From: Chloroflexota bacterium
GTDB taxonomy: Bacteria > Chloroflexota > Anaerolineae > Anaerolineales > UBA4823
Assembly: GCA_029265355.1 (NCBI GenBank)
Contig: JAJUJL010000005.1
Location: 168,339-232,338 of the forward strand
Direction: 5' to 3'
DNA: 64,000 nt
Positions 3,275-24,806 of this stretch are shown in pieces. The notes below the pieces were generated by a model. The model was not told the origin of the DNA. It worked only from the letters and a program-made list of their open reading frames with translations, and made no database searches. Numbering within the stretch: position 1 is the first letter of the stretch; every line of letters starts with the position of its first letter. Both the position numbers and the translations under genes were made by a program.

Positions 3275-4255
3275 TCAGGGCAGCACGAACCAACCACCCT
3301 GCAGGCAATCCAGTGCGGCGCGGTAGACGGGCTTGAGCAGGGGATGGGTGTCCATTGTCAGCGCTTCATCCGCAGTCAGCCAGGCCAGGTCGAGCGTCTC
3401 CGTGCCGTCAATGCGCAGCGATCCGCCGGTCGGGCAGCAAGCGAACAACGCCACCACCGATTGAACCCGATCGCCGTTGGGATACACCCAAATCTCCGGC
3501 GGCGAGAAGATGCCCAGCAGGCGCTGTGGAATCACCTCCAGACCGGTTTCTTCGCACAGCTCGCGCACCAACCCCTGGGCGGCGTTTTCTCCAAAATCAA
3601 GGTAGCCGCCCGGAAAATGCCACAAACCGTTATCCCTGCGCCTGGCGACCAACAGCCGTCCATCCGCACGTTGCACCAGGCCGGCGCTGCCGACGCCAAT
3701 GTACGCAGCATTGCCAATTCTTTCGCGGATCGACTCGATCTGCCGGGCGTATGGCGTGCGTTGATTGGGTGGGCGGAATGCGGGCGTCCCCCCTGCCAGG
3801 CAGTCGTCGAGCATGGCGTTGTACCAGGGCAGGATGGATTCACGCGGCAATTCCAGGGGAGCAAAAAAAGCTTGCTCTGTACTCTCCACGCCATCGACGC
3901 GCATCTCGCCGCCGGCAACCTGCGCTTCGAAGCACACCGTGAACTGCTGCACTTCGTCGCCATTGGGGTAGAGGGTGTCGTACTCAGGTTCGGAGTACAA
4001 GCCGACCAGACGCAGTGGACCGGCATGCAGGCCGGTTTCCTCCAGCAGCTCGCGGCGAGCGCAGGATTGGATATCCTCGCCTAGCTCCAGCGAGCCGCCC
4101 GGCAGCCCCCAGGCGTGGAAATCCGCCCGCCGCTGCAGCAGGATGCGCCCGATGGAATCGCGCAAAACGATAGAGGCAAACGCCAGGAAGGTCTTGGAAT
4201 GACCGATCTGGGCGCGCAGGTATTGGATGTACGATTGTGAGGGGAGATTTTCCAA
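3275..4255 (-). CDS. Tandem double NUDIX hydrolase
   Basis: Two Nudix boxes (GGSLELGEDIQSCARRELLEETG; GGYLDFGENAAQGLVRELCEETG). Start is uncertain (TTG 4255 preferred); the upstream in-frame extension is an RHS remnant. Confidence 0.85.
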   Translation of the reverse strand: MENLPSQSYIQYLRAQIGHSKTFLAFASIVLRDSIGRILLQRRADFHAWGLPGGSLELGEDIQSCARRELLEETGLHAGPLRLVGLYSEPEYDTLYPNGDEVQQFTVCFEAQVAGGEMRVDGVESTEQAFFAPLELPRESILPWYNAMLDDCLAGGTPAFRPPNQRTPYARQIESIRERIGNAAYIGVGSAGLVQRADGRLLVARRRDNGLWHFPGGYLDFGENAAQGLVRELCEETGLEVIPQRLLGIFSPPEIWVYPNGDRVQSVVALFACCPTGGSLRIDGTETLDLAWLTADEALTMDTHPLLKPVYRAALDCLQGGWFVLP

Positions 4256-4390
4256 TGATATGACTCGACTGCCAGGTATTAGGAACCTGAGAATGATACC
4301 ACGGGAATCCAGGGGTACTGTTTCACTGTGCAATACGTGATTGGCAATCTTGATGGTGGATCTTAAGACCTGGCCTGGGCAGAGCGAAGG

Positions 4391-4462
4391 ATGGTCGCCC
4401 AGCAGGTAATGCTGCTTCGCATTGACACGCATTGCCAGCCGTTGCGAGCTGGCGTAGAAGCA
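4391..4462 (-). pseudogene. RHS-core remnant
   Basis: Translates CFYASSQRLAMRVNAKQHYLLGDH, resembling the RHS core YYAGxQRxAMR...YLLGDHLGS. In-frame stops lie just upstream. Confidence 0.6.
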
Positions 4463-4512
4463 GGGCAGCTATCAGCCAGCCCATCCGCCCCGGACGAGTT
4501 GGTAACTCGTCC
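4463..4512. repeat. REP-like hairpin doublet (copy A)
   Basis: Perfect GGACGAGTT-GGT-AACTCGTCC (4492-4512), linker ATCCGCCCC, and a degenerate GGGCAG...AGCCC hairpin. Homologous to 40238-40284. Confidence 0.6.
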
Positions 4513-4721
4513 CACACGGTGTTGAGACCAGGATGGCGAGCGTGCTGATAATATCGAGGGGACTGGTGCAGTAATGCACCCTGGATGTTAACATTATCGC
4601 GAATTCCGGCTTGAAATAGTCGTGGGCAGGGTTTACCCTGGCCAGCCCAGATTAAAGTCCAATGAACCTATCATAAGCATCAGGACTCACACCGCCTGAT
4701 TCATGGTATGATTTATCTAAT

Positions 4722-5117
4722 TTGGAGGTTGCTATGGAAGATAAAATTACGATTATTGAGGGGCCTCCGCCCACCTTTGAAGCCGTTCCGGATGGTTGGG
4801 CGTTGGGCCTGAGCGAAGGCCCTATTCTTAACGATATTGCCGTAACCCGCTTGCGTACGTACAACGGCCCCTCTTTAGTCGAACGCTGCCACCGCGCCTG
4901 GCGCAATCATCAGCCGATCCACCTGGAATATCGCACCGAGGACGGCCTCCAGCATCAAGCGCCGATTGTTGCAGCGCGCACGCTGGAAGTGGATGAGGGG
5001 CAGATCCTCATCCTATGGCTGCGCATGGAGGATCAGGAAGTTGAATTGGAGCTGGACTACGGAGACGACGAAACCGATGATTTTGACTATGACGATGGAA
5101 GCACGACTCCCTTTTAG
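4722..5117 (+). CDS. Conserved hypothetical protein (acidic C-terminus)
   Basis: Clean ORF with GGAGG RBS and a terminator downstream. Confidence 0.7.
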   Translation: MEVAMEDKITIIEGPPPTFEAVPDGWALGLSEGPILNDIAVTRLRTYNGPSLVERCHRAWRNHQPIHLEYRTEDGLQHQAPIVAARTLEVDEGQILILWLRMEDQEVELELDYGDDETDDFDYDDGSTTPF

Positions 5118-5139
5118 CCCTGGCAACGGCTAATGGCAA

Positions 5140-5174
5140 ACGTCCCGAGCGTCTGGCTCGGGACGTCTTTTTTT
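5140..5174 (+). terminator. Rho-independent terminator
   Basis: ACGTCCCGAGC-GTCTG-GCTCGGGACGT followed by a T-run. Confidence 0.85.
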
Positions 5175-5243
5175 AAATCCCCTTTACGCAGGCGCAAGAA
5201 TTTATGCTAGACTCACAAACACACAAATGGCAGCGGAGGGAGA

Positions 5244-6059
5244 ATGGCAGAAAACGAGGCAACCTTACTCAGCGATCTCACCAGCGGCGTGTTGACGTTG
5301 ACCCTGAACCGACCCAAGGTGAACGCTCTCAACGCCGCTTTGATCCAGGCGCTGCAACAGGCGCTGCGTCTTGCCGCCAGGGATGCGCAGGTGCGCTGCA
5401 TACTGTTAACAGCAAAGGGCGCGGTCTTCAGCGCAGGGCAAGACTTGCTCGAGATGCAACAAGCGCAGGGCACATCGTTTCGCCAGCACCTGCAGCAAAC
5501 CTACAATCCGCTGATCTTGCAGCTTCGCCAGTTGGAAAAACCGGTACTGGCAGCAGTCAACGGGCCGGTGTCCGGGGCTGCTCTGGGGATTGTGCTGGCT
5601 TGCGACCTGCGCATCGCTGCCGAGAGCGCCCGTTTCGTGGTCGGCTTCCTGGGAATCGGACTAGCGCCAGATTCAGCGGTCTCGCTGCTGCTGCCAGCGC
5701 TGATTGGATTGGGACGAGCGACCGAGTTTGCCTTTTCCAACGCCCCAATCCACGCCGAGCAGGCGCTTGCCTGGGGACTGGTCAACCGGGTTGTGCCCAC
5801 AGCCGAGCTGGAAAACCAGGCCAGAGCCTATGCCCAGGCGCTGACGCTCGGACCGCTGGGCGCATTCGGGCTTGCCAAGCGGGCTTTCAATCGGGCAGTG
5901 CTGCCCAACCTGGAAGATGTGCTGGATTACGAAGCCCACCTGCAGGATATCGCTGCGCGCCTGCCTGAGCACCAGGAAGGCGTAGCGGCTTTCCTGGAAA
6001 AGCGCCTGCCACATTTCCAGCCTACGGCAGAATCAGGGCAAGCCACCGCAAGTAAATAG
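5244..6059 (+). CDS. Enoyl-CoA hydratase/isomerase (PaaG-like crotonase)
   Basis: LTLNRPKVNALN, FSAGQDL, KPVLAAVNGPVSGAALG and LAPDSA crotonase motifs. Confidence 0.9.
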   Translation: MAENEATLLSDLTSGVLTLTLNRPKVNALNAALIQALQQALRLAARDAQVRCILLTAKGAVFSAGQDLLEMQQAQGTSFRQHLQQTYNPLILQLRQLEKPVLAAVNGPVSGAALGIVLACDLRIAAESARFVVGFLGIGLAPDSAVSLLLPALIGLGRATEFAFSNAPIHAEQALAWGLVNRVVPTAELENQARAYAQALTLGPLGAFGLAKRAFNRAVLPNLEDVLDYEAHLQDIAARLPEHQEGVAAFLEKRLPHFQPTAESGQATASK

Positions 6060-6094
6060 CTTGCCTCACCCAGGGCATACGCACAGTGGGCAGG

Positions 6095-7105
6095 TTACTC
6101 GTAACCGCGCGGGTTCGCCGATTGCCAGCGCCAAACATCCGCGCACATGGCGTTGATATCCAGGCTGGCCTTCCAGCCCAATTCCCGTTCCGCCAGGCTG
6201 GGATCAGCATAGGATTCGGCAACATCACCAGGACGGCGAGCCACGATGCGGTAGGGGATTTTTACGCCGCTGGCTTTTTCGAAGGCTTGAACCACTTCCA
6301 GAACAGAATAGCCTCTGCCTGTGCCCAGGTTGTAGGCGACCACGCCTGGTTTCTGCTGCAGCTTCTCCAGCGCCTTGAGATGGCCTTTCGCCAGATCGAC
6401 GACGTGAATATAATCGCGCACCCCGGTGCCGTCTCGGGTGGGATAATCGCCGCCAAACACCGACAGCTCGCGCAATCGCCCCACCGCCACCTGGGCGATG
6501 TAGGGCAACAAGTTGTTGGGAATGCCCTGCGGATCTTCACCAATTCTGCCGCTGGGATGGGCGCCCACCGGGTTGAAATATCGCAGCAGAATGGCATTCC
6601 AGGCGGGATCGGCTCTGTGCAGGCTATAGAACATATCCTCGATGACCAGCTTGGTATGCCCGTAAGGATTGGTGAAGGAGCGCGGGAAATCCTCGGTAAC
6701 CGGTACTCGCTGCGGTTCGCCATACACTGTGCAGGATGAGCTGAAGACGATATCCTTAACGCCCATCCGCTCCATGACGCGCCACAAGACCAGCGTGCCG
6801 GTCAGGTTGTTGTGGTAGTAGCGCAGCGGTTGGGCGACCGACTCCCCGACGGCCTTCAGGCCGGCAAAGTGAATAACAGCATCGACGGCCGCGCGCTGAA
6901 AAACCGCTTCCAGGGCTGCTTCGTCCAACAAATCCACCTTGTAAAATTCTACAGGTTTGCCGGTAATACTCTTAACGCGGTGGACGGCTTCTTCTTTACT
7001 ATTCGACAGGTTGTCGACAATCACAACCTCGTAACCGGCATCGAGCAGCTCCACGCAGGTGTGGCTGCCAATGTAACCTGCCCCCCCAGTGACCAGGATT
7101 CGCAT
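6095..7105 (-). CDS. galE: UDP-glucose 4-epimerase
   Basis: [62 protein letters not shown] supports start 7105. Confidence 0.97.
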
Positions 7106-7115
7106 GACTTGCTCC

Positions 7116-7739
7116 TCACAACTGGACTTTTCGGTGATGAACGCGATGATGTTCCGCCTGAATGATTGCCGCAATCACATCCACGGTTTCTTTCAGGTGA
7201 TTATCATGGTTAACCACCACGTAATCGAATTCTTCGATGCGCTTCATCTCCTGCCGCGCCATGGCAATGCGCAGTTTCAACTGATCAGGAGGGTCGGTGC
7301 GCCGCTCAACCAGGCGCTGCACCAGGGCCTCTTCGCTCGCTGTGGTCAGAAAGATCAACACCGCTTGCGGGGCTTTCTCGCGGATGGTCGCCGCTCCTTG
7401 AACATCTACGCGCATGACCACATCCTTGCCGCTTTGCAGCGCTTCACGCACCTGTGCTCGGGGAATGCCCTTATAATCTTCATAGACAATGGCATATTCC
7501 AACAATTCATCGCGGTCGATCATTTCTGCGAATTGGCTGCGCGTATAAAACCAATAATCAACACCATGGCGTTCATTCTCACGCTTTGGGCGTGTGGTCG
7601 CGGTTACCACAAAATGAAAGGGCAAGCCGCGCGCTTTCATTTCGGCAATAACACTATCTTTGCCCGCTCCCGAAGGGCCAGAAATCACGATCAGCAATGG
7701 TTCAGAACGCTCGGGTTTAAAAAAGCCAGTTTCACTCAT
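7116..7739 (-). CDS. gmk: Guanylate kinase
   Basis: [12 protein letters not shown]-loop, [24 protein letters not shown]. Confidence 0.95.
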
Positions 7740-7808
7740 CGATATCGTGCTCCCAAAAATTATGCCCACTGATTATAATTCGAAAGTACTTTTGCCTGGA
7801 GGTAAATC

Positions 7809-8195
7809 ATGCCACACTATCCATACACCTGCCGGAACTGCCGCAAGCGATTTGAAGTCTTCATGACATTCAGCGAATATGGCACGCGCCGCGTGATCTG
7901 CCCCCACTGCCAGAGCGAGGAGGTGCAGCGCAGGATCACCCGTGTGCGCGTTGCGCGTTCTGAAGAAAGCCGCATGGAGTCGTTAGCTGACCCATCGAAG
8001 CTGGATGGGCTCGAAGATGATCCCAAGGCAATGGGACGTATGATGCGCGAAATGAGCCGTGAAATGGGAGAGGAGCTGGGGCCAGAATTCGACGAAGTGG
8101 TGGACCGCTTAGAATCCGGACAGTCGCCGGAAGAGATCGAGAAAGCCATACCCGAATTGGGCGGAGATGCCGACGGCGGGGATGATTTGTTATAG
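7809..8195 (+). CDS. FmdB family zinc-ribbon protein
   Basis: MPHYPYTCRNC...CPHCQSEEVQR signature. Confidence 0.85.
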   Translation: MPHYPYTCRNCRKRFEVFMTFSEYGTRRVICPHCQSEEVQRRITRVRVARSEESRMESLADPSKLDGLEDDPKAMGRMMREMSREMGEELGPEFDEVVDRLESGQSPEEIEKAIPELGGDADGGDDLL

Positions 8196-8203
8196 GCTGC
8201 TCA

Positions 8204-8836
8204 TTACGCCGGCGATTTTCCTGCGATTGCCAGGCGTTCCATAACCGCTGCTTTCACCGCCGCCTGGACGATCTCCGGCGGCGGTGCGGCATCTATCGTT
8301 ACCCAACGCGCAGGTTCCTGCCGCGCCAGGGCTAAAAACCCCTGGCGCACCCGGCGGTGAAATTCCAGGTCATAGGCATCCAGGCGATTCCACCCACCCT
8401 GCTGCGCCCGCCTTGCCAGCCCCACTTCCACATCCAAATCCAGCAACAGCGTCAGATCCGGTTTCAATCCGCCCGTGGCAAACCTGACAATTTCTGCCAG
8501 CGCTTCCAGGTCTACCTTATGACCATAGCCCTGGTACGCCAGGGTCGAATCAGCATACCGGTCGCACAGCACCACCCCCCCTTGCGATAAGTGTGGGCGA
8601 ATAACTTGCTCCACCAATTGCGCCCGCGAGGCTTGAAACAGCAGGATCTCGGTGCGCGGGTGCATGGCCTTGTTCTTCATATCGAACAGCACAGAGCGTA
8701 TTTGGTCACCAATCTCTGTGCCGCCCGGCTCGCGCGTGTGCAACACGTTGTAACCGAGCTGGCGCAGATGCTCTGCCAGGCTACGGATGTGGGTGGTTTT
8801 CCCACTTCCCTCGGGACCCTCGAAGGTAATGAACAT
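8204..8836 (-). CDS. tmk: Thymidylate kinase
   Basis: MFITFEGPEGSGKTT, TREPGGT, CDRYADSTLAYQGYG. Confidence 0.97.
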   Translation of the reverse strand: MFITFEGPEGSGKTTHIRSLAEHLRQLGYNVLHTREPGGTEIGDQIRSVLFDMKNKAMHPRTEILLFQASRAQLVEQVIRPHLSQGGVVLCDRYADSTLAYQGYGHKVDLEALAEIVRFATGGLKPDLTLLLDLDVEVGLARRAQQGGWNRLDAYDLEFHRRVRQGFLALARQEPARWVTIDAAPPPEIVQAAVKAAVMERLAIAGKSPA

Positions 8837-8861
8837 GGTCTGGTGAGTGTTTACCTTGCCG

Positions 8862-10511
8862 TTACTCGCGAAAGATGCGCACCCGGCGACGGGGCTCTTT
8901 GCCATAGGAGTGCGAATGCAGCTTGGCTTGTCGGGCCATCTGGTGCTGCAGCCGGCGAATGGAGGCAGAGGCGGGCTGCAGTTCGACCCACCGTTCACCG
9001 TTCAGCACCGCATCGATGGCCGCCTGCGTCTCGCGGCGCACACCTTCTTCGCCCCGCTCATCGATCGCCACCGTGCTCAGATTAAACAGGTCGCTCAGAA
9101 ACTGCTGCATTTGATTGACCGTATTGGCGCGCAACACATAGATCGGCATGCCGCGGTTCTCTGCATCCATGATCGTGCGCTGGCGGTTGCGGTAATAGGA
9201 TCGCAGAGTGACCAGCACTTCAGCCTCTCCAGGCTCATTGACGATCATCGCCGGCACACCCAGGCGTTTTGCAGCCTGGGTCAGCCGGTTTCGGGCAACA
9301 CCGTAAGGGTAGACGCGAATGGTCTGCAGTGCGGCAGTTCCCGCAGCAAAGGAGTCAGCAGAATAGCGAGCGCTTCGTCCTTCGCCTTCCGTCTGTTCAT
9401 CCTGACGGCTATAGAGGCTGCGCTCTTGCGCGTTGCGGTCAGGGCCTCCGCCGTTTCCCACCCGGCGACCAGCCGAAGAGCGGCTCTGCGTGGCAAAAAC
9501 GCCCGGTGCAATGGCCGCTTTTTCCACGTGGAAGCCGCCGCTTTCATCTCGGACGCGAATTTCAGGGGGCAGCGGGTAACCGCGCAGCACCGAATCGACC
9601 GCCTCGGCCACATCGGGGTGAATGGCAAAGGTATCGCGATTCTGAATTTCAATCAACACATCAAAGGTTGGTGGAGCGCGCCGCTCCAGCACGGTCTTCT
9701 GGGTGCCCCGCCGGCGGGCTTCCTCATCAGAAAGGGTGACGGATTCGATACCGCCTACCAGATCAGAGAGAGTCGGGTTGAGCAATAAATTCTCGAGCGT
9801 ATTGCCATGCGCTGTACCGATCAATTGCACACCCCGTTCAGCAATGGTGCGCGCTGCCGCCGCCTCGAGCTCTCGGCCGATCTCATCGATCACGATGGCT
9901 TCCGGGTTGTGATTCTCGACCGCTTCGATCATCACCTCGTGCTGCAGAGAAGGCCTGGCTACCTGCATACGCCGGGCGCGCCCCACTGCCGGGTGTGGGA
10001 CATCTCCATCGCCGCCAATTTCATTGGATGTATCCACAATCACCACCCGCTTGGTCTCTGCCAGCATGCGCGCCGCCTCGCGCAACAGGGTGGTCTTGCC
10101 GACGCCTGGTCGGCCAAGCAAAAGCAGGCTTTTCCCGCTCTCGATCAAGTCTTTGATGATATCGGTTGTGCCATAGACTGCCCGCCCAACCCGGCAGGTG
10201 AGGCCGACAATGCGCCCACGCCGGTTGCGTATGGCTGAGATACGATGCAAGGTGCGTTCCATACCGGCGCGGTTATCAGCGTCAAATTCACCGATGCGCT
10301 CAACGACATAATCAATCTCTGCGGGGGTCACCTCGCTGGGCAGCAAAACAATTTCTCGATCCACAAAACGCGCTGTCGGCACGCGTCCCAGGTCCAGGAT
10401 GATTTCCAGCAAATTGGCTTCGTCATTCGCCTTACGCACCGCTTTTTGAACATCTGCTGGTAGAACGTCTAAGAGCGCCTGCAAATCATCAGTTATCCGC
10501 TTTTGCGACAT
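8862..10511 (-). CDS. Ycf45/SpoIIIAA-like AAA ATPase with C-terminal R3H domain
   Basis: GRPGVGKTT, VIDEIG, TAHGNTLENL; C-terminal ASIRRLQHQMA (R3H). Confidence 0.85.
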   Translation of the reverse strand: MSQKRITDDLQALLDVLPADVQKAVRKANDEANLLEIILDLGRVPTARFVDREIVLLPSEVTPAEIDYVVERIGEFDADNRAGMERTLHRISAIRNRRGRIVGLTCRVGRAVYGTTDIIKDLIESGKSLLLLGRPGVGKTTLLREAARMLAETKRVVIVDTSNEIGGDGDVPHPAVGRARRMQVARPSLQHEVMIEAVENHNPEAIVIDEIGRELEAAAARTIAERGVQLIGTAHGNTLENLLLNPTLSDLVGGIESVTLSDEEARRRGTQKTVLERRAPPTFDVLIEIQNRDTFAIHPDVAEAVDSVLRGYPLPPEIRVRDESGGFHVEKAAIAPGVFATQSRSSAGRRVGNGGGPDRNAQERSLYSRQDEQTEGEGRSARYSADSFAAGTAALQTIRVYPYGVARNRLTQAAKRLGVPAMIVNEPGEAEVLVTLRSYYRNRQRTIMDAENRGMPIYVLRANTVNQMQQFLSDLFNLSTVAIDERGEEGVRRETQAAIDAVLNGERWVELQPASASIRRLQHQMARQAKLHSHSYGKEPRRRVRIFRE

Positions 10512-11469
10512 AAGTTCTTGTCTTCTCCAAAAAAACTCGCTGCACATGCGCGATTGGAGCTGTCATCTCTGGCGAGCCGCCCTCCAATACGGGCAATGCA
10601 TACGACCTCAAAGCTTTTTGTGGGACTGCCAGGTGGCGAACCATTACCGCCTGGCGCGGTCCCGGTTCCGCTCCCATCGCTTCCACGGCAGGCTCCAACC
10701 AGGATTCATAAGTGCGAATGCACAGGTAGATGGGACGGGAGCGCCGGTATGACAGTTTCTGCAGGAAATCTACCAGCCGGTCCACCGCCTCTTCGGCGTC
10801 CGGGTGAACAAAAGGCTGCGCCCAGATGCCGCGATGTCCATATTTTAACTCCACGTAGGCCAGCACATCTCCATCCTGGCGATAAACCATCCCCTGCAAC
10901 CGCTCTGCCGGGAAGGGCTCAACCTGCTGCACCAGGCCGGGCACCAGGTTGTTATACAACGACCGGACTGAGATCAAATCCCGGTCACAGGCGGCATCCC
11001 AGCCGGTCGCCTGGATTTCGCTGGTATTATGCTGCTTCAGCCGCCAGACGCGCTGGCGGGCGTAAATGGCAAAACCAGCCTGGCGCAGGGCGTCATACAC
11101 CGGGCTATGTTCGTTGACATCTGCCAGCAAGCGAAATGCGCCCCGAGCCACCACTTGCGACGCAATGTGCTCGAGCAGCCTGACCAGCTTGGCATTATCC
11201 AGGCCTGGCTCCGGCGCCAGAAAGGTGAGTTGCGCCACCTGAGAGCCGCCCAGGTGGATGACCTGACCGATGAGAAGGTCTCCCGCGCTATCCGCTCCAT
11301 CGCAGATCGCCGTGTAGATGCCCGCGGTGGGCATCAGGGCAGAAAACACAGCTCCTGAGATGAGCATGGGGCCGCGCGTCAATACCAGAGCGTTATGCAA
11401 GAACACGCTCTCTTTGCGCAGGCGATAGAGAGCCGCTAGGTCACGCCAGTCAAAAGATCGAACGCTCAT
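10489..11469 (-). CDS. Conserved hypothetical protein, probable GNAT fold
   Basis: Long ORF in operon; SPVYDALRQAGF resembles a GNAT C-terminal motif. Confidence 0.6.
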   Translation of the reverse strand: MSVRSFDWRDLAALYRLRKESVFLHNALVLTRGPMLISGAVFSALMPTAGIYTAICDGADSAGDLLIGQVIHLGGSQVAQLTFLAPEPGLDNAKLVRLLEHIASQVVARGAFRLLADVNEHSPVYDALRQAGFAIYARQRVWRLKQHNTSEIQATGWDAACDRDLISVRSLYNNLVPGLVQQVEPFPAERLQGMVYRQDGDVLAYVELKYGHRGIWAQPFVHPDAEEAVDRLVDFLQKLSYRRSRPIYLCIRTYESWLEPAVEAMGAEPGPRQAVMVRHLAVPQKALRSYALPVLEGGSPEMTAPIAHVQRVFLEKTRTYVAKADN

Positions 11470-11477
11470 CCAGTCCC

Positions 11478-12086
11478 TTACACCGGCGCCGCCCTGGGCT
11501 GACGAACCTCAGAGGCCATGTGCAAGAACAGGCGGTGAAAGCGATCGTCATCGGTCAACTCTGGATGAAAAGAGGTGGCCAGCAGATGACGCTGGCGAGC
11601 AGCAACGATCCGCCCATTGTCCAGTTGAGCCAGAACGCGCGCCTCGCCACGCACCGTCTCGATCAGCGGGGCGCGAATAAACACCGCATGGTAAGGCTGT
11701 GCGCTCGGGTCCACCAGTTGCAGCTCAGGCACCACCAGGTCGACCTCAAAGCTGGCGATCTGCCTGCCGAAGGCGTTGCGCTCCACGGTAATGTCCATCA
11801 GCTCCAACAACGGCTGTGGACGGCGGGCATCGCGCGACAGGAAAATCGCTCCTGCACAGGTTCCCCAAATCGCCTTGTGCGCGCCAAATTGACGCAATGG
11901 CTCGATCAGGCCAAAATCCACCGCCAATTTGCCTATGGTGGTCGATTCCCCGCCCGGGATGATCAGGCCGTCCAATTGCTCCAAATGCTCTGGCAGGCGC
12001 ACTTGAACCACATCGACCTGCAGCCGGCGCAGCATGGCAATGTGTTCAGAAAAATCACCTTGTAAAGCAAGCACACCGATGCGCAT
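11478..12086 (-). CDS. pdxT: Pyridoxal 5'-phosphate synthase glutaminase subunit
   Basis: IGVLALQGDF, IPGGEST, WGTCAG, SFHPEL. Confidence 0.97.
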   Translation of the reverse strand: MRIGVLALQGDFSEHIAMLRRLQVDVVQVRLPEHLEQLDGLIIPGGESTTIGKLAVDFGLIEPLRQFGAHKAIWGTCAGAIFLSRDARRPQPLLELMDITVERNAFGRQIASFEVDLVVPELQLVDPSAQPYHAVFIRAPLIETVRGEARVLAQLDNGRIVAARQRHLLATSFHPELTDDDRFHRLFLHMASEVRQPRAAPV

Positions 12087-12179
12087 GAAATCTCTCATTC
12101 AAACCAAAGGCAAAACACCCATCTAGCAATGCCCAGATGGTGAATACACGTGGGTTGGCTGGGGCAAAGCAAGGCAACG

Positions 12180-13067
12180 TCACCAACCGCGACCGGCGAT
12201 CAGCTCAGCTTCCGGTATGCTCGAGATTTGGCGCCCCACCATAGGTTCACCCAGATTGCGGCTGACTTCTGCCAGGATGTACGGATCGCGGTAGTGCGTC
12301 ACGGCCTTGACGATGGCGGCCGCGCGCCGGGCAGGATCGCCGGATTTGAAGATGCCTGAGCCAACAAAGACACCATCCACACCCAACTGCATCATCAGGG
12401 CGGCGTCTGCTGGCGTGGCAATACCACCAGCAGCGAAGTTGACCACCGGCAAACGTCCCAGGCTGCGCGTCTCCAACACAAGCTCGTACGGCGCGCCGAT
12501 CTCTTTCGAAAAAGTCATCAACTCTTCCTCAGGCATCGCCTGCAATCGCCGGATTTCACCCAACACGGCCCGTGCGTGCCGGACAGCCTCGACCACATCA
12601 CCGGTGCCCGCCTCGCCCTTGGTGCGGATCATGGCTGCGCCCTCGCCGATACGGCGCAGCGCCTCGCCCAGGTTGCGGCAGCCACACACAAACGGCACTT
12701 TGAAGGTGTGTTTATTGATATGATGGGCCTCATCTGCAGGGGTTAACACCTCTGACTCGTCGATATAGTCCACGCCGATCGCTTCCAGGATCTGCGCCTC
12801 GACAAAATGCCCTATGCGGCATTTTGCCATCACCGGTATGGAAACCGCATCCATGATCTTCAAGATCAGCTCGGGATCGCTCATGCGGGCTACTCCGCCG
12901 TTGGCGCGGATATCCGCGGGCACACGCTCCAGGGCCATCACCGCCACTGCCCCAGCGTCCTCAGCAATGCGAGCATGCTCTGGCGTGACAACATCCATAA
13001 TTACGCCGCCCTTGAGCATCTGCGCCAGTCCTTTTTTAACTGCGAAAGTTGCTATCTGCTGTTCCAT
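12180..13067 (-). CDS. pdxS: Pyridoxal 5'-phosphate synthase lyase subunit
   Basis: [39 protein letters not shown]. Confidence 0.98.
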
Positions 13068-13155
13068 AAAATCTACCTCCTGGGTCTAAATTTGACCCCA
13101 GTTTTTAATCATTCTACCACGCGGGTGAAAGCATGACAATCCAGGCTCTCTCAAG

Positions 13156-13288
13156 TTCGGACAACAATTCGGACAATCAGGGTAAGGCTGTCATCGCGAG
13201 CGACAGCGAAGCGATCTCCGCGATCATTCAGGAGATCGCCTCGCCCCTTCGGGTCTCACAATGACCCGCGAGATGGGGGTTGTCCGAA
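13156..13288. repeat. Palindromic REP/MITE-like element flanked by 10-bp inverted repeats
   Basis: GTCATCGCGAG...CTCACAATGAC (13190-13265) with inner GCGATCTCC/GGAGATCGC; outer TTCGGACAAC (13156) and GTTGTCCGAA (13279). Confidence 0.6.
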
Positions 13289-13476
13289 GGTCAGAGACTC
13301 TTTGGGAATCGCGGTGGCGACAGGCGGGTGTGGAGGTCGTTAGCGGCTTTGCCCTTGCTGCTAAAGCCCAGGGGGAGGAATAAGATCAGCGCAAGAGTAA
13401 CGGCAGATAGATACTCTCCGGTGGCGGGGTCAAGCTGCTCACCCGGTTTGCTGCCATCTCGGCAAACCACAGCTCA

Positions 13477-13800
13477 CTATCTGCCTAAACGGCAATGATG
13501 GCAGCGTGAGGGCAGCCACATCAGAAGCGCTTTTAGAAACTCGCGGCATAGATGCTCACGCGACGCGGCCGCCCATTCCGCGTAGCGGTCAGTAGCAAAC
13601 AGGTCGCCCTGGTAGAGATTTACTGTTGTCTCCCAATCTTCTGTGCGAACAGATGCCTCGAATTCTAGAAAATCCACACACGAGCCTGGCGGCAGGTGCA
13701 GTTCGACCAGCCCTTCAATGTAACCGCCCTTGATGACCTGCCCTGCAGCTTACAACCAGCATGCTTCGGCGTCAAGAGCGCGCCGGATTTCTGGAGAGCA
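13477..13800 (-). pseudogene. Degraded BTAD (SARP/AfsR-type) transcriptional regulator fragment
   Basis: EIRRALD...*...LHLPPGSCVDFLEFE...WETTVNLYQGDLFATDRYAEWAAASREHL, with in-frame stops and no intact start or HTH. Confidence 0.65.
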
Positions 13801-13820
13801 GCTCAATGGTTAACAATAAT

Positions 13821-13834
13821 AGAACACAAGTTCG
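13821..13834. promoter_or_regulatory. Putative LexA (GAAC-N4-GTTC) SOS box
   Basis: AGAAC-ACAA-GTTCG in an AT-rich gap, next to a TATTAT -10-like hexamer on the minus strand. Confidence 0.5.
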
Positions 13835-13949
13835 ATTATTTAGCAGCAGTTTCCATGACCGAAATAGGTCGGCTACGTATTTAGGCGGCTATGCAGATGC
13901 TGAAGATTGCAGCAAAATCATGGCAAATTCCCCCTGGGCTATCCCAGGA

Positions 13950-13965
13950 TGTTTCACGTGAAACA
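13950..13965. other. parS site 1
   Basis: Exact TGTTTCACGTGAAACA, the canonical ParB-binding palindrome. Confidence 0.9.
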
Positions 13966-14019
13966 CTGTTCGGCCGAAAACAAATGCGGCTTCAGGCGGA
14001 AGCCAGGCGAGCCGCTCGT

Positions 14020-14035
14020 CGTTTCACGTGAAACA
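14020..14035. other. parS site 2
   Basis: CGTTTCACGTGAAACA, one mismatch to consensus, 70 bp from site 1. Confidence 0.85.
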
Positions 14036-14036
14036 A

Positions 14037-15053
14037 TCACACGCCGTTCGCCTGAGCCCAGGCATCCAGCGTCTCTTCAACAGTATCCAGGTAGATATCA
14101 AAGGCCTCTATTCGCTCAGCAAAGCCGTCGCCCACCAACCCCAATCCAGCGGCAGCGTTCTGCCAGGCGAGTCGCGCGGTGTGCCCTTCGGGCAGCACAT
14201 CTGCGGCTGAAGTCCAGGTGCGCAGCAGCGGCCACAGCACTGCCTGGGGTGATTCCCCTTTCAGCATGCGCTCCATGGCTTTGGCATAGTACGCCATTCG
14301 AGCAGGGTGCAGGCGAGCCGGGAGGTCCTGTCTGGTTTCTTCAACCGCTGCGTTCCAGGCCGCCTGCCATGCCGGTAGCATTTGCTGCAGTTCGGGTGTC
14401 CCTCCGGCGTTAGCGCCGCCCAACAAACCGAGCAATCCGGGCAGGAGCCCCGGGCGATTCAGCGCACCTGCCCTTTCCCCGAAAGCCAGCAGCAATCGCC
14501 GCTCGGTCAGCGGCATGCCGTTCAGGCTGGCTACAGCATTGACAGTGTGCTCGATGGCTCGCAGGTAGCGCAGCATGATCGATGTTGGAGTATCTCCTTC
14601 CTGTGGACTGTGGAACGACATCCACATCTGGCGGGCATGTTCGTATTGCTGGCGCGAACGGCGCAGCATGTAATCCGGTCGGTCGAATTGCCCGCGCACA
14701 CTGGCCTGGATAAAATCCAAAAAATGCTGAGGATCATAGAGCGGCTTGCAGTAGAACAACGTGGGGCCCATCCAGGGATGCAGTCTCAGTGTCCGTGTAT
14801 CTCGGAATTCTCTCTGCGCATAATGGGCAAGGTCCAGATGCACAAGATCGTTGATGGGCACAATTTCCCGGTCAGCTTGCGGTGTTTCGAGATGGATGAA
14901 GGTCAAATCGATATCCGTTGCGCCGCCAAGCAGGTATTCATCACCCAATAACGATCCGCTCAAATAGACCGCGATGACATCGCTTCCGGGGCGCGTTCGC
15001 TGCTTGACCGTTTCATCGGCAATATTTAAGAGCATATCTCGGGTGATCCGCAT
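14037..15053 (-). CDS. Hypothetical protein with N-terminal DNA pol-beta-like nucleotidyltransferase domain
   Basis: VIAVYLSGSLL...GGATDIDL (GS...DxD motif) followed by a helical C-terminus. Confidence 0.65.
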   Translation of the reverse strand: MRITRDMLLNIADETVKQRTRPGSDVIAVYLSGSLLGDEYLLGGATDIDLTFIHLETPQADREIVPINDLVHLDLAHYAQREFRDTRTLRLHPWMGPTLFYCKPLYDPQHFLDFIQASVRGQFDRPDYMLRRSRQQYEHARQMWMSFHSPQEGDTPTSIMLRYLRAIEHTVNAVASLNGMPLTERRLLLAFGERAGALNRPGLLPGLLGLLGGANAGGTPELQQMLPAWQAAWNAAVEETRQDLPARLHPARMAYYAKAMERMLKGESPQAVLWPLLRTWTSAADVLPEGHTARLAWQNAAAGLGLVGDGFAERIEAFDIYLDTVEETLDAWAQANGV

Positions 15054-15094
15054 TGTTTCCCTCTTGTTCCCGTTTCAATTATCGGCAGATCTTC

Positions 15095-15757
15095 TCATTC
15101 TTTGTGAGCGGCGTTCAAGGGCAACTCCGCCTGGAAGGGCGACAGGTGCAAAGCCTGGCGGATTCGGTTCTCGACCAGATTCAAGTTGTCTGCGTTGCGC
15201 ACAAAATCCAGGTTATTGGTATCGATGGCCAGTATCGGCACCCCGTGTGATTTTCCACGCTCTGGATCCAGGTATACCGCTTCATAAGTGCGGTTGAGTT
15301 GATCAATGTAGGTGCGCTCCATATTTCGCTCGTAGGGACGATCACGCAGAGCGATGCGCTGCATCAAGGTATCGGTGTCCGCCCTGAGATAGACAATCAG
15401 GTCCGGCAGGATAATTTTCTCTGCCAGGGCTTCGTGCACGCGGAAGTACATATCCAGCTCGTCGCCATGCAGGTTAATGCGGGCGAAGAGCGAGTCTTTT
15501 TCGAAGGTATAATCTGCGATCAGGTTGGCGCCGCGCTGCAGTATTTCGGGCACAGCGCGCCGTTGCTGGTGATAGCGGCTCAGCAAGAAAAATATTTGTG
15601 TCTGGAAGGCATAGCGCTCACGATCCGCGTAAAAGTCTGAGAGGAATGGGTTTTCCTCAAAGACCTCCAGCAGTATTTCCGCCTGGAGTGAGCTCTGCAG
15701 CAGCCGAGCCAGCGTTGTTTTTCCGACCCCGATTACACCTTCGATGGCAATATACAT
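15095..15757 (-). CDS. Deoxynucleoside kinase
   Basis: YIAIEGVIGVGKTT, ENPFLSDFYAD, FQTQIFFLLSR, PDLIVYL. Confidence 0.93.
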   Translation of the reverse strand: MYIAIEGVIGVGKTTLARLLQSSLQAEILLEVFEENPFLSDFYADRERYAFQTQIFFLLSRYHQQRRAVPEILQRGANLIADYTFEKDSLFARINLHGDELDMYFRVHEALAEKIILPDLIVYLRADTDTLMQRIALRDRPYERNMERTYIDQLNRTYEAVYLDPERGKSHGVPILAIDTNNLDFVRNADNLNLVENRIRQALHLSPFQAELPLNAAHKE

Positions 15758-15824
15758 ATATCTTCACCTGTTGAGTGTGTTGGATTGCGCCTTATGCCAG
15801 GCTGTGTGGGTATCATTCGCCATA

Positions 15825-16529
15825 TCAACTGCTTTTGGTGGGCAATCCGCCTGTCATGGCGCGCAGCAAGGTGCGGATCACCAGCCTGCCAGACTCGGCC
15901 CGGTGCAGTACACGTCCCAGCGGAGATGCATTCACCGCCGTTTCAACCAGGATATCCAGGCGTTCGCCGCCTTTCTGCCTGGCCTGCAAATACGCCATAC
16001 CGGCCCCAAATAAGTACCCCAGATCCATCCCCGTCTGAGATTGCGGTTCTCCCGTATCCTTCTCCCGACTCGCTTCATAGCGGTCCCAATCCGCCAGGGC
16101 ATCCAACAGCGCCTTGACGACATCCTTCTCCCGTCCTGTGGCAGATGTTTTTGAATTTTCCCCCTCCTCCTGGGGTTTTAGCTGGCTGGCAGTGTAAGAC
16201 ACCAGATCTTGAAGGCTGAGTCGATGTTCCTGCAATCGCGCTGCAAGCAGAGATAGGCCAACCCCATAGACATGCGCTGAGTCATTGTCTGGCAATGCTT
16301 CCAACTGGCGACTGGCCTGCAACATGACTTGAGAAAGATCCGCTCCCTGGGAGCCAGCAGCTTGCTCAGACTGGGCTGTTCGAACTGCAACCTCGAAAAT
16401 GGCCACCATGTGATCGCCATGATTACCATCGACCGTATCGGCCTGGTTCAGTCGCAAGCGCTGATCCCTCAGCGCCTGTAGTACAGCGCTGAAAATCTCA
16501 TACAGGTCGAGGCGTGGCTGCTCAAGCAT
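15825..16529 (-). CDS. Stand-alone DAK2/DhaL-like domain protein
   Basis: LNQADTVDGNHGDHM resembles the DAK2 LNxLD...GDHG motif. Confidence 0.6.
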   Translation of the reverse strand: MLEQPRLDLYEIFSAVLQALRDQRLRLNQADTVDGNHGDHMVAIFEVAVRTAQSEQAAGSQGADLSQVMLQASRQLEALPDNDSAHVYGVGLSLLAARLQEHRLSLQDLVSYTASQLKPQEEGENSKTSATGREKDVVKALLDALADWDRYEASREKDTGEPQSQTGMDLGYLFGAGMAYLQARQKGGERLDILVETAVNASPLGRVLHRAESGRLVIRTLLRAMTGGLPTKSS

Positions 16530-16615
16530 TCGTAATAGCTGCGGTGCGCCGTTCTTCTGCTCGCAGAAGCCTGGCTAGAGCGACGCACCGGTAGAGAAAA
16601 TGGTAGAGATGGCGC

Positions 16616-18397
16616 TCAGGCTTTCGCAACAGGCAATTTTTCGATTTCATCCAGCGTCGCAGACAGAACATCAAAGCCGCCCTGCCAAAACTCAGCCGAA
16701 GCGATATCGACGCCCGCTTCGCTCAAAACACGCGCTGGCGACTCAGACCCGCCAGCCGCCAGGATATTCAAATACCGCGGCTTGAAGGAATCGCCCTCGG
16801 ATTTGTACTGCTGGTACAACGAGAGCACCAACAGTTGCCCAAAGGCGTAAGCATAGACGTAGAAAGGCACCTGGTAGATATGGGGGATCGAAACCCATTC
16901 CCAACGAAACTCATCGCTGACATCCACTGCATCCCCGAATTGCCGCCTCAGGTTCTCCATGTAAGCTGTGGAGAGATCATCCACCGAGGCGCCTTGCAGC
17001 ACCATCTCATGCGCCTGGCGCTCAAACAGGGCAAAGAAGGCTTGCCGCATAATGGTCGCATAGGCGTCATCCATCTGGCGGAAGAGCAAGTCTCGGCGCA
17101 CAGCCTCGTCATTCTCGTTGGAGAGCAGCTTGTCGATGAGCACCATTTCGGCAAATGTCGAGGCCGTTTCCGCCAACGGCAAAGAAGGGTGGAAAGTGAA
17201 CAGATTGTGATGGGCAGCCAGCATGGAATGGATGGCATGGCCCAGTTCGTGCGCCATGGTTGCCACATCATCAGCTCGGCCCTGGTAATTGAGCAGCACC
17301 CAAGGAGTCATGTCCGGTACAACGGTGCTGCAAAACGCCCCGCCGCGTTTTCCCTTGCGCACCTCGCTATCCAGCCGCTGTTCATCGAATACGCGGCGCG
17401 CCAGGCTGGCGACCTTAGGTTCGAATTCCTGTAATGATTCGAGCACCATTTCAGCCGCCTCGCCAAAGGCATAGGTCTTTTCAGATTCAGCAATTGTGGC
17501 GTAGATATCGTAACGGCGCAGGCGCTCCATTCCCAACCAGCGGGCCTTAAGCCGGAAATAGCGTTGGAAAAGTGGGGCGTTGCGCTCGCAGACTTGCAAC
17601 AGGGTGTCCACAACCTGATCCGGGATATCATTTGCCAGGTTGCGCGCCGCGATCGGGCTGGCAAATTTTCGCAATTCTACTTGCTCGTTTCGCCAATCTC
17701 GCACCAATGTTTGATAAATCTGCCCTAAGATCGCGCCTTCTTCCCCATACACCCGGTATAGCTCCTGGTAAGCTCGAGCGCGCCAATCGGCGTTGTTGCT
17801 GCGCGCATACACCATCAGTTCTCCGCGCGTCAACTCCTTGATCTCGCCATCCACTTCCATCTTGAAAACATAGCGGTTGGTAATCGTATCGTACAGGTTA
17901 CCCAGTGCGCTCGATCCCGTTACGTTTTTGATATTAATGATCTTCTCTTCCGCTTCCGAAAGCGTGTGCGGTTTGAAGTGGCGCATCTCTTCCAGCCAGT
18001 AGCGATAATCGCCGGCTTTAGCCATCAAGCGGGCTGCATTGTGATCATCCAGGTCCTTCCACCACAAGCTGAAAAACAGCACCCGGTTTTGCAGCTCTGC
18101 CATGAGCTGTTCGACCTGCCCCAAGAAAGCCATGATTCCCTGATCCTGGGTATCTGCCGCAAAGCTGAGCCCGGCAAAACCGTACAGGCGATAACCCAGG
18201 TGATTGATAGCTTCCAGGCTACGCACAATCTCGAAGAATTCTTCGGGCGAGATATCTGGCTTAAGCCGGGCGCGATTAGCTTCAAAAGCACTGACCTGTG
18301 CTTTCAATTCATCGATGGCTTGTCGCACTTCGGGAGAGTCAACCGAGGAAAACAGGGGAGACAGGCTCCATTGCGTCTGTGTGTAAGGTAGGGTCAT
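16616..18397 (-). CDS. pepF: Oligoendopeptidase F (M3B)
   Basis: TMAHELGHAIH (HExxH), AETASTFAE, IPHIYQVPFYVYAY. Confidence 0.93.
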   Translation of the reverse strand: MTLPYTQTQWSLSPLFSSVDSPEVRQAIDELKAQVSAFEANRARLKPDISPEEFFEIVRSLEAINHLGYRLYGFAGLSFAADTQDQGIMAFLGQVEQLMAELQNRVLFFSLWWKDLDDHNAARLMAKAGDYRYWLEEMRHFKPHTLSEAEEKIINIKNVTGSSALGNLYDTITNRYVFKMEVDGEIKELTRGELMVYARSNNADWRARAYQELYRVYGEEGAILGQIYQTLVRDWRNEQVELRKFASPIAARNLANDIPDQVVDTLLQVCERNAPLFQRYFRLKARWLGMERLRRYDIYATIAESEKTYAFGEAAEMVLESLQEFEPKVASLARRVFDEQRLDSEVRKGKRGGAFCSTVVPDMTPWVLLNYQGRADDVATMAHELGHAIHSMLAAHHNLFTFHPSLPLAETASTFAEMVLIDKLLSNENDEAVRRDLLFRQMDDAYATIMRQAFFALFERQAHEMVLQGASVDDLSTAYMENLRRQFGDAVDVSDEFRWEWVSIPHIYQVPFYVYAYAFGQLLVLSLYQQYKSEGDSFKPRYLNILAAGGSESPARVLSEAGVDIASAEFWQGGFDVLSATLDEIEKLPVAKA

Positions 18398-18465
18398 TTG
18401 GGGATTCTCGTCTTTCTCTGGTCGAGGGATTGAGATGTTGAAGAAATAAATTATACCTGATGCCG

Positions 18466-19536
18466 TTACAGATTAAATCGCACATGCATGATTTCGCCAT
18501 CGCGCAAGATATATTCCTTACCCTCCAGGCGCAGCTTGCCCTTTGAGCGCGCCTCGTTTAATCCACCCAGGCTGAGCAGCTCTTCACAGTGAACAACTTC
18601 GGCGCGAATGAATCCTTTTTGTAGATCGGAGTGGATCACACCTGCCGCTTCGAGCGCAGACGTGCCGCGCTGGATTGTCCAGGCGCGCACTTCATCTGGC
18701 CCAACCGTGAAGAACGACTGCAACCCCAGTAAATCGTATGACAGGGCAATGACTTTGGAAAGTCCCATCTCTTCGATGCCATATTCCGCCATAAACAATT
18801 GTGCATCTTCCCTGGAGAGCTGGGCCAATTCCATTTCCAGGCGCCCTTGCAGGCTGGTCACCGCGCTGCGTTGATGAGCGTAATTGATCGTTGGCGCCGG
18901 CTGATCGTCCGAGAGATTGAGCAACACCAACATTGGTTTGCGCGAGAGGAAGCCGAATCCGGAGATCATTTTCTCGTCTTCGCTGGAAATCTCCAGATCG
19001 CGCAGCGGCAAGTCTGCGGCCAGGTGTTCGTGAAAGCGATTGAAGAGATCGATCTCGCGCTCAATCAAGGTGCGATCACGCCCTCCGCCCTTTTTGCGTT
19101 CCTCTACTAACCTCTCTAACCGGCGTTCCACGGCGATCAGATCATTCAGCAGTAATTCAGCATCCATGGTGGCGATATCACGCCGTGGATCGAGGCTGCC
19201 AGCAGGGTGCGGCACGTTGAGATTCTCAAAGCAGCGCACCACGTGCACGAATCCATCCATTTGAGACAATTGGTTTAGCAACTGACCCGAGATGCCGCTT
19301 TTACTGGCGCTTCCCTCCAGGCCAGCGATATCGGCGTAGGTCACCTTGGCGTAAATGGTTTTTTTGGGATTGAAAAGTTTTGAAAGCCGGTCGACGCGTT
19401 CATCTGGCACATCGACGACCGCTGTGTGTACTTCAAAACGTCCCCCGCTCATGGTTACAGGCTGGTTACCCCGCGTAAGGGCATTGAAAATGGTGGTTTT
19501 TCCTGATTGTGGTAACCCGATGATACCTAATCGCAT
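18466..19536 (-). CDS. ychF: Redox-regulated ATPase YchF
   Basis: GIIGLPQSGKTT, DIAGL, SFFTVGPDEVRAWT, RLEGKEYILRDGEIMHVRFN. Confidence 0.96.
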   Translation of the reverse strand: MRLGIIGLPQSGKTTIFNALTRGNQPVTMSGGRFEVHTAVVDVPDERVDRLSKLFNPKKTIYAKVTYADIAGLEGSASKSGISGQLLNQLSQMDGFVHVVRCFENLNVPHPAGSLDPRRDIATMDAELLLNDLIAVERRLERLVEERKKGGGRDRTLIEREIDLFNRFHEHLAADLPLRDLEISSEDEKMISGFGFLSRKPMLVLLNLSDDQPAPTINYAHQRSAVTSLQGRLEMELAQLSREDAQLFMAEYGIEEMGLSKVIALSYDLLGLQSFFTVGPDEVRAWTIQRGTSALEAAGVIHSDLQKGFIRAEVVHCEELLSLGGLNEARSKGKLRLEGKEYILRDGEIMHVRFNL

Positions 19537-21106: not shown

Positions 21107-21123
21107 TGCGTCAAAGGATAAGA

Positions 21124-24800: not shown

Positions 24801-24806
24801 CCAGCC

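Follow-up and report, generated by a model that had tools for sequence, protein, structure and literature searches.

Decayed RHS gene relics with an orphan REPIN-like doublet probably lie at both ends of a 35.5-kb inversion in an Anaerolineales genome

The DNA stretch analyzed here (the window) comprises 64,000 nucleotides of a Chloroflexota bacterium, C32:168339-232338 in contig coordinates, from a draft genome (G000) of 5.05 Mb in 64 contigs with 58.6% GC, whose close relatives are labelled as Anaerolineales/Chloroflexota metagenome-assembled genomes. It contains two short compound elements, copy A at the left side and copy B at the right side, each consisting of a doublet of hairpins of the repetitive extragenic palindromic (REP) type followed by a piece of a gene of the RHS ("rearrangement hot spot") family. 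We consider it likely that A and B are decayed paralogues of a shortened RHS gene (mini-RHS), that they carry an orphan REPIN, that is, a REP doublet whose transposase is missing, and that they lie at the ends of a lineage-specific inversion. This 35.5-kb inversion, with A and B at its endpoints, was missed in the preliminary description of the window.

The two copies have the following parts (positions in the window); their doublets were matched by a covariance model, R1, built from the REPIN doublet alignment, and boundaries of RHS-derived parts are given relative to a related mini-RHS on contig C27 (the reference, with ATG at 179 and REPIN at 243-299).

4391-4655, minus strand: copy A as a whole (doublet and RHS-derived parts), REPIN followed by RHS-derived sequence
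4460..4515, minus strand: REPIN-like doublet of copy A; R1 match C32:172798-172853, 58.9 bits, genome-wide E=1.3e-12
4391..4459, minus strand: RHS-derived fragment of copy A directly after the doublet, translated as the peptide FYASSQRLAMRVNAKQHYLLGDH
4516..4655, minus strand: diverged remnant, in copy A, of the RHS 5' untranslated region (5'UTR) and the leader encoding the signal peptide (...LDIISTLAILVSTPCG...), extending to the ancestral boundary proximal to gene X (see below)
40230-40566, plus strand: copy B as a whole, REPIN followed by RHS-derived sequence
40230..40287, plus strand: REPIN-like doublet of copy B; R1 match C32:208568-208625, 48.4 bits, genome-wide E=1e-9
40288..40566, plus strand: RHS-derived part of copy B, matching reference 250-356 and 767-924 (blastn)

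The preliminary description had reported a two-hairpin element running into an RHS-core peptide on the minus strand, and the same hairpin pair ahead of a second RHS fragment; both observations hold, at 4391-4512 and at 40230-40287 on the plus strand, respectively. The hairpin core of copy A, GGACGAGTTACCAACTCGTCC-GGGGCGGAT-GGGC...GCCC, occupies window positions 4479-4512 (minus strand), and shuffled sequences are expected to yield zero matches to it. Its hairpin 1 is GGGACGAGTT-ACC-AACTCGTCC, the spacer is GGGGCGGAT, and the imperfect hairpin 2 is GGGCTGGCT-GAT-AGCTGCCC. The termini of this doublet are degenerate (GTGGG...CCTGC), the GTAG tag having decayed to GTGG; the stem of hairpin 1 is preserved in the doublet alignment via a compensatory change of C:G to T:A. 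The doublet of copy B consists of (GTCA)GAGCTGTCAGCTCGTCC, the spacer GGGGTGGAT and GGGCAAGTTGTCAGCTTGCCCTAT, with the 5' arm of hairpin 1 truncated. The doublet core CTCGTCCGGGG(C/T)GGATGGGC is identical in A and B at 19 of 20 positions, as had been claimed, and the pair forms the longest inverted repeat of the window.

The family consensus reads 5' GTAGG-ACSRGCTGTYAGCYSGT-CC, a spacer of 5-9 nt, and GG-GCAAGCTNNCAGCTTGC-CCTAC 3', with the two REP hairpins inverted relative to each other. In oriented copies from the genome-wide scan, hairpin 1 is GGAC(C/G)(G/A)GCT-GTY-AGC..GTCC and hairpin 2 is GGGCAAGCT-NNC-AGCTTGCCC; the single REP consensus, GTAGGAC..GCTGTYAGC..GTCC, is an imperfect palindrome with GTAG at one end. 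The layout of a GTAGG-hairpin, 5-9 nt and a hairpin-CCTAC is common to 17 aligned doublets, where 91.8% of stem cells are paired, double (compensatory) changes are seen in 7 stem pairs, and none of 500 shuffles reaches the observed covariation. REPINs are REP doublets forming hairpins and are associated with RAYT (REP-associated tyrosine) transposases (Bertels & Rainey 2011, PMC3116915, PMC3337134), and GTAG-tagged REPs have been reported in Chloroflexi and inside open reading frames (ORFs), frequently close to the N-terminus (Di Nocera et al. 2013, PMC3733652). Judged by its sequence, the doublet is a REPIN-like element made of two GTAG-tagged REPs in inverted orientation, in agreement with the earlier assignment of the hairpins to the REP type.

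In G000, R1 recovers 24 REPIN loci (E<1e-3) in intergenic contexts, which is a low count for a REPIN population. Among 81 genomes of the same family, belonging to 55 genera, R1 matches were found in 13 (11 genera), G000 being the richest; REPIN loci are also present in the sister species G001. Matches to the single-hairpin motif extend to Planctomycetota, Verrucomicrobiota, Acidobacteriota and other Chloroflexota. Exact-pattern scans gave zero matches to the doublet with its spacer in public genomes and zero matches to the segment following the REPIN in metagenomes, the REPIN-RHS composite being seen in these scans only in G000; no Rfam family matched three copy loci. Two further observations concern repeats of this genome. 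A REPIN together with about 45 nt of its upstream flank is directly duplicated on contig C41 (C41:1065-1165 and C41:12654-12754, 11.6 kb apart, 91% identity), with part of the flank present a third time at C41:779-833, making it a second case of a REPIN repeated along with flanking DNA. A separate dispersed element with the invariant hairpin TGTTTCCATGACGCTGGAAGCGTCATCCGG is found at about 20 loci of G000, one of them (C58:141904-141924) 150 nt upstream of the composite on contig C58.

As to the RHS-derived parts, the peptides of A and B alone match no RHS hidden Markov model (HMM), and no YD/RHS repeat was detected in them. The cut-offs used here and below are 22 bits for RHS_repeat, 32.5 for Rhs_assc_core (TIGR03696), 23 for Pfam Y1_Tnp and 80 for NCBIfam REP_Tyr_transpos. 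Homology to an intact paralogue is found instead: both fragments align just upstream of the Rhs_assc_core domain of the intact RHS protein on contig C6 (60.5 bits vs 32.5). This position accounts for the HMM misses and also for the decay at the DHxGS motif that had been noted for both fragments and is indeed seen, the fragment of A ending at GDH and that of B at MIG, immediately before DHLGS. The fragment of A is 80.6% identical to reference 889-960 over 72 nt (17/23 aa in BLASTP), and its leader remnant aligns with the leaders of the RHS genes or copies on C50, C27, C17 and C12 (blastn, 72% over reference 206-303), preceded by a very diverged 5'UTR. Copy B starts after the REPIN with the YD repeat MNDPAVGKW*DQYD, which has an in-frame TAA, and continues after an internal deletion with GQRGKTIIEG...KVYYAGAQRLAMRTGSGTEMSGLQWMIG; the peptide ...KVYYAGAQRLAMRTGSGTEMSGLQWMIG begins about 110 nt after the doublet, and the RHS-like stretch terminates with ...YYAGAQRLAMRTGSGTEMSGLQWMIG. 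It matches the intact RHS C-end on C6 at 38/73 amino acids (BLASTP); at the nucleotide level, copy B gives 81% identity over 158 nt (blastn). The Rhs_assc_core domain itself is absent from A and B, and no toxin tip or immunity gene was found beside either copy, the next genes being those of a NUDIX hydrolase and of a small conserved protein Y. Judged by these alignments, A and B are derived from bona fide RHS genes.

Genome-wide, RHS-derived sequence lies directly 3' of hairpin 2 at 7 of the 24 REPIN loci, and the other 17 have none beside them. With margins of 300 nt included, RHS-like DNA constitutes about 0.4% of G000, so that RHS sequence is enriched next to the doublet (P about 1e-11, the seven loci not being independent), an outcome that the preliminary description had left to be counted. 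The seven copies are as follows.

C12:176582, plus strand: copy C12, reference 85-677
C17:34454, minus strand: copy C17, reference 135-363, then a different RHS type
C27:79686, plus strand: copy C27, the longest (1.37 kb), serving as the reference
C32:49253, minus strand: copy c, reference 220-363
C32:172798, minus strand: copy A, reference 206-303 and 889-960
C32:208568, plus strand: copy B, reference 250-356 and 767-924
C58:142054, plus strand: copy C58, reference 245-362 and 768-930

All seven have identical junctions, in the order RHS leader, REPIN, YD repeat and late RHS core, with nested boundaries. To the left of the doublet, C12, C17 and C27 have a conserved 5'UTR of about 170 nt, a ribosome-binding site (RBS) and ATG-MNPTRRIYRIVSLLVILAL; full-length RHS genes (C50, C57, contig ends of C44 and C17) have the same 5'UTR and leader without a REPIN, the leader continuing as ...LLLQSVPAQADD... 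To the right, all copies have about 60 nt encoding ...MNDPDMG(T/R)WY.Q.D; this segment matches the YD repeat ...IDADMGTWYYSYDASSNL... of a full-length G001 RHS gene, and the segment after it, ...DAASNVDWIKDY..., corresponds to a repeat located much further along that gene. The C27 copy extends to ...YYYAGSQRLAMRANADLYYLLGDHLGSTS...YFYGARWYDP, scoring 22.7 bits for RHS_repeat (cut-off 22) and 30.7 bits for a partial Rhs_assc_core (cut-off 32.5; model positions 1-42 of 76). No copy is intact, all being interrupted by stop codons or a frameshift or else truncated, and deletions have trimmed each of them differently. Copies B and C58 are 82% identical over 265 nt and have the same internal deletion at different loci; as this deletion lies between short direct repeats, it could be recurrent. 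Since the junctions are identical on both sides, the seven copies are, on sequence grounds, paralogous relics of one chimeric mini-RHS gene with one ancestral junction rather than products of repeated captures, and the parent appears as a chimera in which the leader, the REPIN, one YD repeat and the late core were joined by YD-to-YD deletions.

Several observations accompany these copies. The in-frame TAA (GTW*DQ) at window positions 40324-40326 is common to B, C12 and C27, the codon being TAT in C17 and C58, which fits inheritance of the stop from one pseudogene ancestor common to the copies. Programmed frameshifting, bypass or stop read-through over the hairpins was considered and rejected, as the copies differ by a 1-nt indel in the frame and in their stops. 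The 5'UTR precedes all RHS genes of this type (C50:43373-43551, C57, contig ends of C44 and C17, as well as C12, C17 and C27); it has a hairpin, CCCAGGGGGAACGAGTGGAAAGCCCCCCAGGG, and a T-run upstream of CGCGATAAT, and yields no Rfam match. Isolated RHS-like fragments with no adjacent REPIN are present in G000 at C58:39032-39274 and C12:300-416; hence RHS debris is not confined to REPIN-linked copies, and finding copies by their REPIN introduces an ascertainment bias.

Comparison of the copy loci with the sister species, proposed earlier as a search for empty sites, gave a mixed picture. A clean 60-nt site is present in G001 where G000 has the 1.37-kb C27 copy. At the locus of copy c, G001 has an orthologous RHS relic with the same leader start (GGGGATTGGATA|..GTCATCCTG) and without the REPIN, which keeps another RHS part (reference 457-563, 89% identical to C12); the composite thus predates the split of G000 and G001, the two lineages having trimmed it differently. 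At the C58 locus, the intergenic DNA of G001 is unrelated and offers no clean empty site, and at the C17 and C12 loci the G001 contigs break. Neither RHS sequence nor the composite was found at any of the eight G001 REPIN loci examined.

The positions of A and B coincide with the ends of a segment inverted relative to G001, as follows from blastn alignment of two G001 contigs with C32. The alignments and the flanking features are listed below.

4661..40119, no strand: inverted segment (35.5 kb) relative to G001 and to the ancestral adjacency of genes X and Y
G001 C401 1-39952: window 37062 to 4661, minus strand
G001 C401 42138-67968: window 40594 to 60516, plus strand
G001 C192 3-2959: window 37181 to 40119, plus strand
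G001 C192 3202-24309: window 4245 downward, minus strand
3275..4255, minus strand: conserved part of the NUDIX hydrolase gene, which probably starts with TTG at 4255
4256..4390, minus strand: about 135 nt with no assignment between the RHS fragment and the conserved NUDIX start, inside the left inversion junction
4734..5117, plus strand: gene X, small conserved protein, no Pfam match, bordering the left junction
39408..40115, minus strand: SDR gene, bordering the right junction from within; in G001 it lies divergently beside the NUDIX gene
40633..41016, plus strand: gene Y, small conserved protein, no Pfam match, bordering the right junction, ancestral divergent neighbour of X

Five outgroups (G002, G003, G005, G007, G008) have X and Y side by side in divergent orientation, and in G001 the two genes are 2.3 kb apart; the NUDIX and SDR genes of G001 are likewise adjacent and divergent. 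The X|Y adjacency in the outgroups indicates that the arrangement of G001 is ancestral and that the inversion occurred on the G000 side. Finer mapping places the junctions in two intervals of about 0.4 kb each, 4246-4660 and 40226-40593: G001 homology beside gene X stops at window 4661, homology on the SDR side ends at about 40225, and that on the side of gene Y begins at 40594. Copy A fills the X-proximal part of the left interval and copy B fills the right one, in mutually inverted orientation. Recombination between A and B at a time when they were more alike is the most likely cause of the inversion, as we infer from this arrangement. GC skew over the inverted segment is uninformative. 

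On the left side, the RHS remnant had been described as being in frame with the NUDIX gene; the frame is as stated, since the ORF 3275-4432 is open up to an ATG at 4432 within the RHS fragment, but this part is not conserved. The G001 orthologue (C192:3169-4182) begins with MTSPQQPYIQYL, and homology to it starts only near 4245-4262 (blastn limit at window 4245); for this reason the overlap is an unconserved extension, TTG at 4255 being the likely start. The NUDIX gene has lost its ancestral upstream region, and its present one is formed by copy A. The segment 4256..4390 matches nothing elsewhere in G000 or in the NUDIX|SDR intergenic region of G001, and a promoter and terminator scan of the copy A junction predicted no sigma-70-like promoter and no terminator-like site. 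Copies A and B probably have no present function. In G001, the X|Y spacer holds an unrelated 2.2-kb insert (C401:39953-42137) of lower GC with three ORFs, which was considered as a toxin/immunity pair and could not be called as such, having no Pfam match; in this genus, the spacer between X and Y thus seems to acquire foreign DNA readily.

A putative cognate transposase was found in some relatives. The preliminary description had suggested looking for a RAYT gene flanked by these hairpins, and such genes are present in G013 and G073, not in G000. In G013, four tandem family hairpins lie upstream of a 208-aa ORF, and GACATATTGTAGGGCGGGCTGTCAGCTTGTCCTAC overlaps its stop codon (TAG being the stop). 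The protein begins with MPPLDYKLFYQRHLPHYQ..., contains ...MPNHVHLV... and ...FWQHESYDHVVRD..., and scores 36.1 bits for Y1_Tnp (cut-off 23) and 73.4 bits for REP_Tyr_transpos (cut-off 80); the HUH motif and the catalytic Tyr of a Y1/HUH transposase are present (NHVHLV and SYDH, read from the sequence). The homologue in G073, 63% identical and with one internal TAG, has REPINs on both sides, at distances from the gene match of about 50 nt (before it) and about 55 nt (after it). A third homologue is found in G092, and all three genomes with the gene belong to the 13 with the REPIN. No homologue was found by searching G000, a draft, and G001; the only two Y1 genes of G000, on C13 and C38, are distant (32-33% identity). 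As no cognate RAYT homologue is present, the REPIN family of G000 is best read as an orphaned, decaying population. Decay of REPINs after RAYT loss has been described (bioRxiv 10.1101/2021.07.10.451892), and RAYT loss would explain why the family in G000 is small and diverged.

The two Y1 genes of G000 (C13:~4400-5900 and C38:~63200-64465; RAYT-like, of the RRSIRL.GYDY type) lie within their own, different GTAG-type repeat arrays, so that G000 holds at least three REP families; C38 terminates in tandem GTAGGGGCGGATCACGAT units at the contig end. Moreover, the 13 nt GACATATTGTAGG, extending from the left flank into RHS-linked REPINs (e.g. C17 and C27), are identical to the last codons and stop of the G013 RAYT gene (...CRDIL*; G013:C20 ~261945-261960); the composite reads ...TYCR..., and RAYTs end with ...VYCR(D/G)... 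This REPIN may derive from a REP overlapping the 3' end of a RAYT gene, or the match may reflect an extended REP consensus, WTGTAGG being common.

Taken as a sequence of events, the favoured explanation would start with one REPIN located where, within an RHS gene, the hydrophobic signal-peptide core (...SLLVILAL) meets a YD repeat from the middle of the gene body (...DPDMGTWY...). Further YD-to-YD deletions would then have produced the short mini-RHS consisting of a promoter, 5'UTR, leader, REPIN, YD repeat and late core (we infer this order of the deletions). The chimera would now be present at seven loci as paralogues, A and B being among the shortest relics, and recombination between these two would have swapped their flanks and inverted the intervening segment. 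The REPIN fits the role of a passenger at one ancient junction. Several points weigh against this explanation. Simple in-place decay leaves the same junction at seven loci unexplained, and the clean G001 site for C27, together with the deletion common to B and C58, points to some copying process. The homology between A and B is now only about 55 nt at about 79% identity with a longest identical run of 11 nt, which does not suffice for RecA recombination at present; either the crossover is therefore old, or another hairpin-dependent mechanism was at work. Copy A is about 23% diverged from the family consensus vs about 5% for B; the crossover point between them was not located, the alignment having no diagnostic sites. 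Finally, the RAYT gene's absence rests on a draft assembly of 64 contigs that is 98.45% complete.

The copying that these points suggest could be ascribed to a RAYT-type transposase that cut REP hairpins and mobilised the REPIN with adjacent RHS DNA by a read-through or one-ended process, spreading core pieces; we regard this as unlikely. One REPIN-RHS junction common to seven loci, the 1.37-kb C27 copy missing from the clean site and the internal deletion shared by B and C58 at different loci speak for it, but A, c, C12, C17 and C27, five of the seven copies, have the REPIN internally, preceded on the left by the RHS leader or 5'UTR, and the covariance model detected no REP-like hairpin at the outer ends of the copies. 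In its favour, too, the left boundary of C58 coincides with the REPIN 5' GTAGG, the left flank GACATATT-GTAGG recurs as the 3' end of the RAYT gene of G013, and C41 provides a second REPIN-plus-flank duplicate; yet neither G000 nor G001 has a cognate RAYT, 17 of 24 REPINs in G000 and all eight loci examined in G001 lack adjacent RHS sequence, and at the c locus the relic of G001 consists of RHS sequence without a REPIN. No copy among the seven holds both a complete core domain and a toxin tip, so that nothing useful for toxin shuffling is carried. A unit of promoter, leader, REPIN and RHS core that was once a mobile cassette, copied in trans by a since-lost RAYT or by another hairpin-dependent process, is in our estimate improbable to the same degree. 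The earlier proposal that RHS pieces are moved or captured together with REP hairpins is not supported, in view of the identical junctions, the internal REPIN and the lack of a cognate RAYT, and an undescribed route for shuffling toxin parts need not be invoked, as known processes suffice.

Far less probable still is a functional doublet in a living gene, either as part of a small secreted or lipid-anchored protein with (T/A)SCQL palindromes or as an operator/terminator pair for RHS-like and neighbouring genes. The leader, REPIN and YD region do share one frame in C12 and C27, with each palindrome encoding (T/A)SCQL, but all copies are broken by in-frame stops, frameshift or truncation, and the variation preserves the stems rather than the peptide. 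Three copies have a conserved promoter, 5'UTR and RBS ahead of them and the short ones sit near gene starts; against regulation, 17 other family members are at unrelated intergenic sites, the element is not retained at orthologous G001 sites, and neither an Rfam match nor a promoter-like or terminator-like site was found. A functional element of this kind is largely refuted. It is just as improbable that the link of A and B to the inversion is coincidental or that the inversion is an assembly artefact. The genome is a draft in 64 contigs and the present homology of A and B is very short, but both junctions are in one 236-kb contig with unique sequence on either side, an assembler cannot be misled by a repeat so short and diverged (about 55 nt, 79% identity), and the G001 contigs are collinear up to both junction intervals. 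Moreover, two of seven copies falling, inverted, into two intervals of about 0.4 kb would be very unlikely by chance in 5 Mb.

The preferred explanation, decayed mini-RHS paralogues with an orphan REPIN, has features of several known systems. As in REPIN/RAYT systems, the elements are GTAG-tagged palindromes of about 21 nt in inverted pairs with a short spacer, mostly extragenic and with compensated stems, and in some relatives a single-copy Y1 gene is flanked by the same hairpins (the REPtron layout), with a patchy distribution. Unlike in those systems, the copy number in G000 is low (24 loci) and there is no cognate RAYT, the stems of the two hairpins of a doublet differ (GACCGGC or GACGAGC vs GCAAGC), and seven members form a subfamily situated within RHS pseudogenes. 

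Rhs elements owe their name to recombination among dispersed E. coli copies. The relics resemble Rhs elements and orphan fragments in being dispersed paralogues truncated near the core, providing homology for chromosomal rearrangement, with A and B aligning to the stretch that leads up to Rhs_assc_core in an intact paralogue. They differ from Rhs orphans in lacking a complete core domain, a toxin tip and an immunity gene, in being single and intergenic rather than downstream of a main rhs gene, and in having a 5' leader fused to the late core, with the REPIN placed where the two meet. Insertion sequences, rRNA operons and join-points of REP sequences and bacterial interspersed mosaic elements are known to give rise to inversions when present as inverted repeats. 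Here, too, homologous inverted repeats are found in both junction intervals and the segment is collinear but flipped relative to the sister species; in contrast to those cases, the repeats are short, old and about 79% alike, and do not represent an active mobile element. Each component is of a known kind; the combination and the phylum provide new examples.

The analysis removes the tempting and unsupported idea of REP hairpins ferrying RHS toxin parts; some copying process would have brought an RHS pseudogene module of 0.3-1.4 kb to seven loci. If the mobile cassette were real, it would have seeded dispersed inverted repeats, restructured the chromosome, and placed RHS promoters and core pieces beside unrelated genes. 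For Anaerolineales (Chloroflexota), the data document a REPIN/RAYT-type system, including an orphaned population without a transposase, and provide a clean worked example in which short relics of a polymorphic-toxin gene stand at either end of a 35-kb inversion that distinguishes two sister species.

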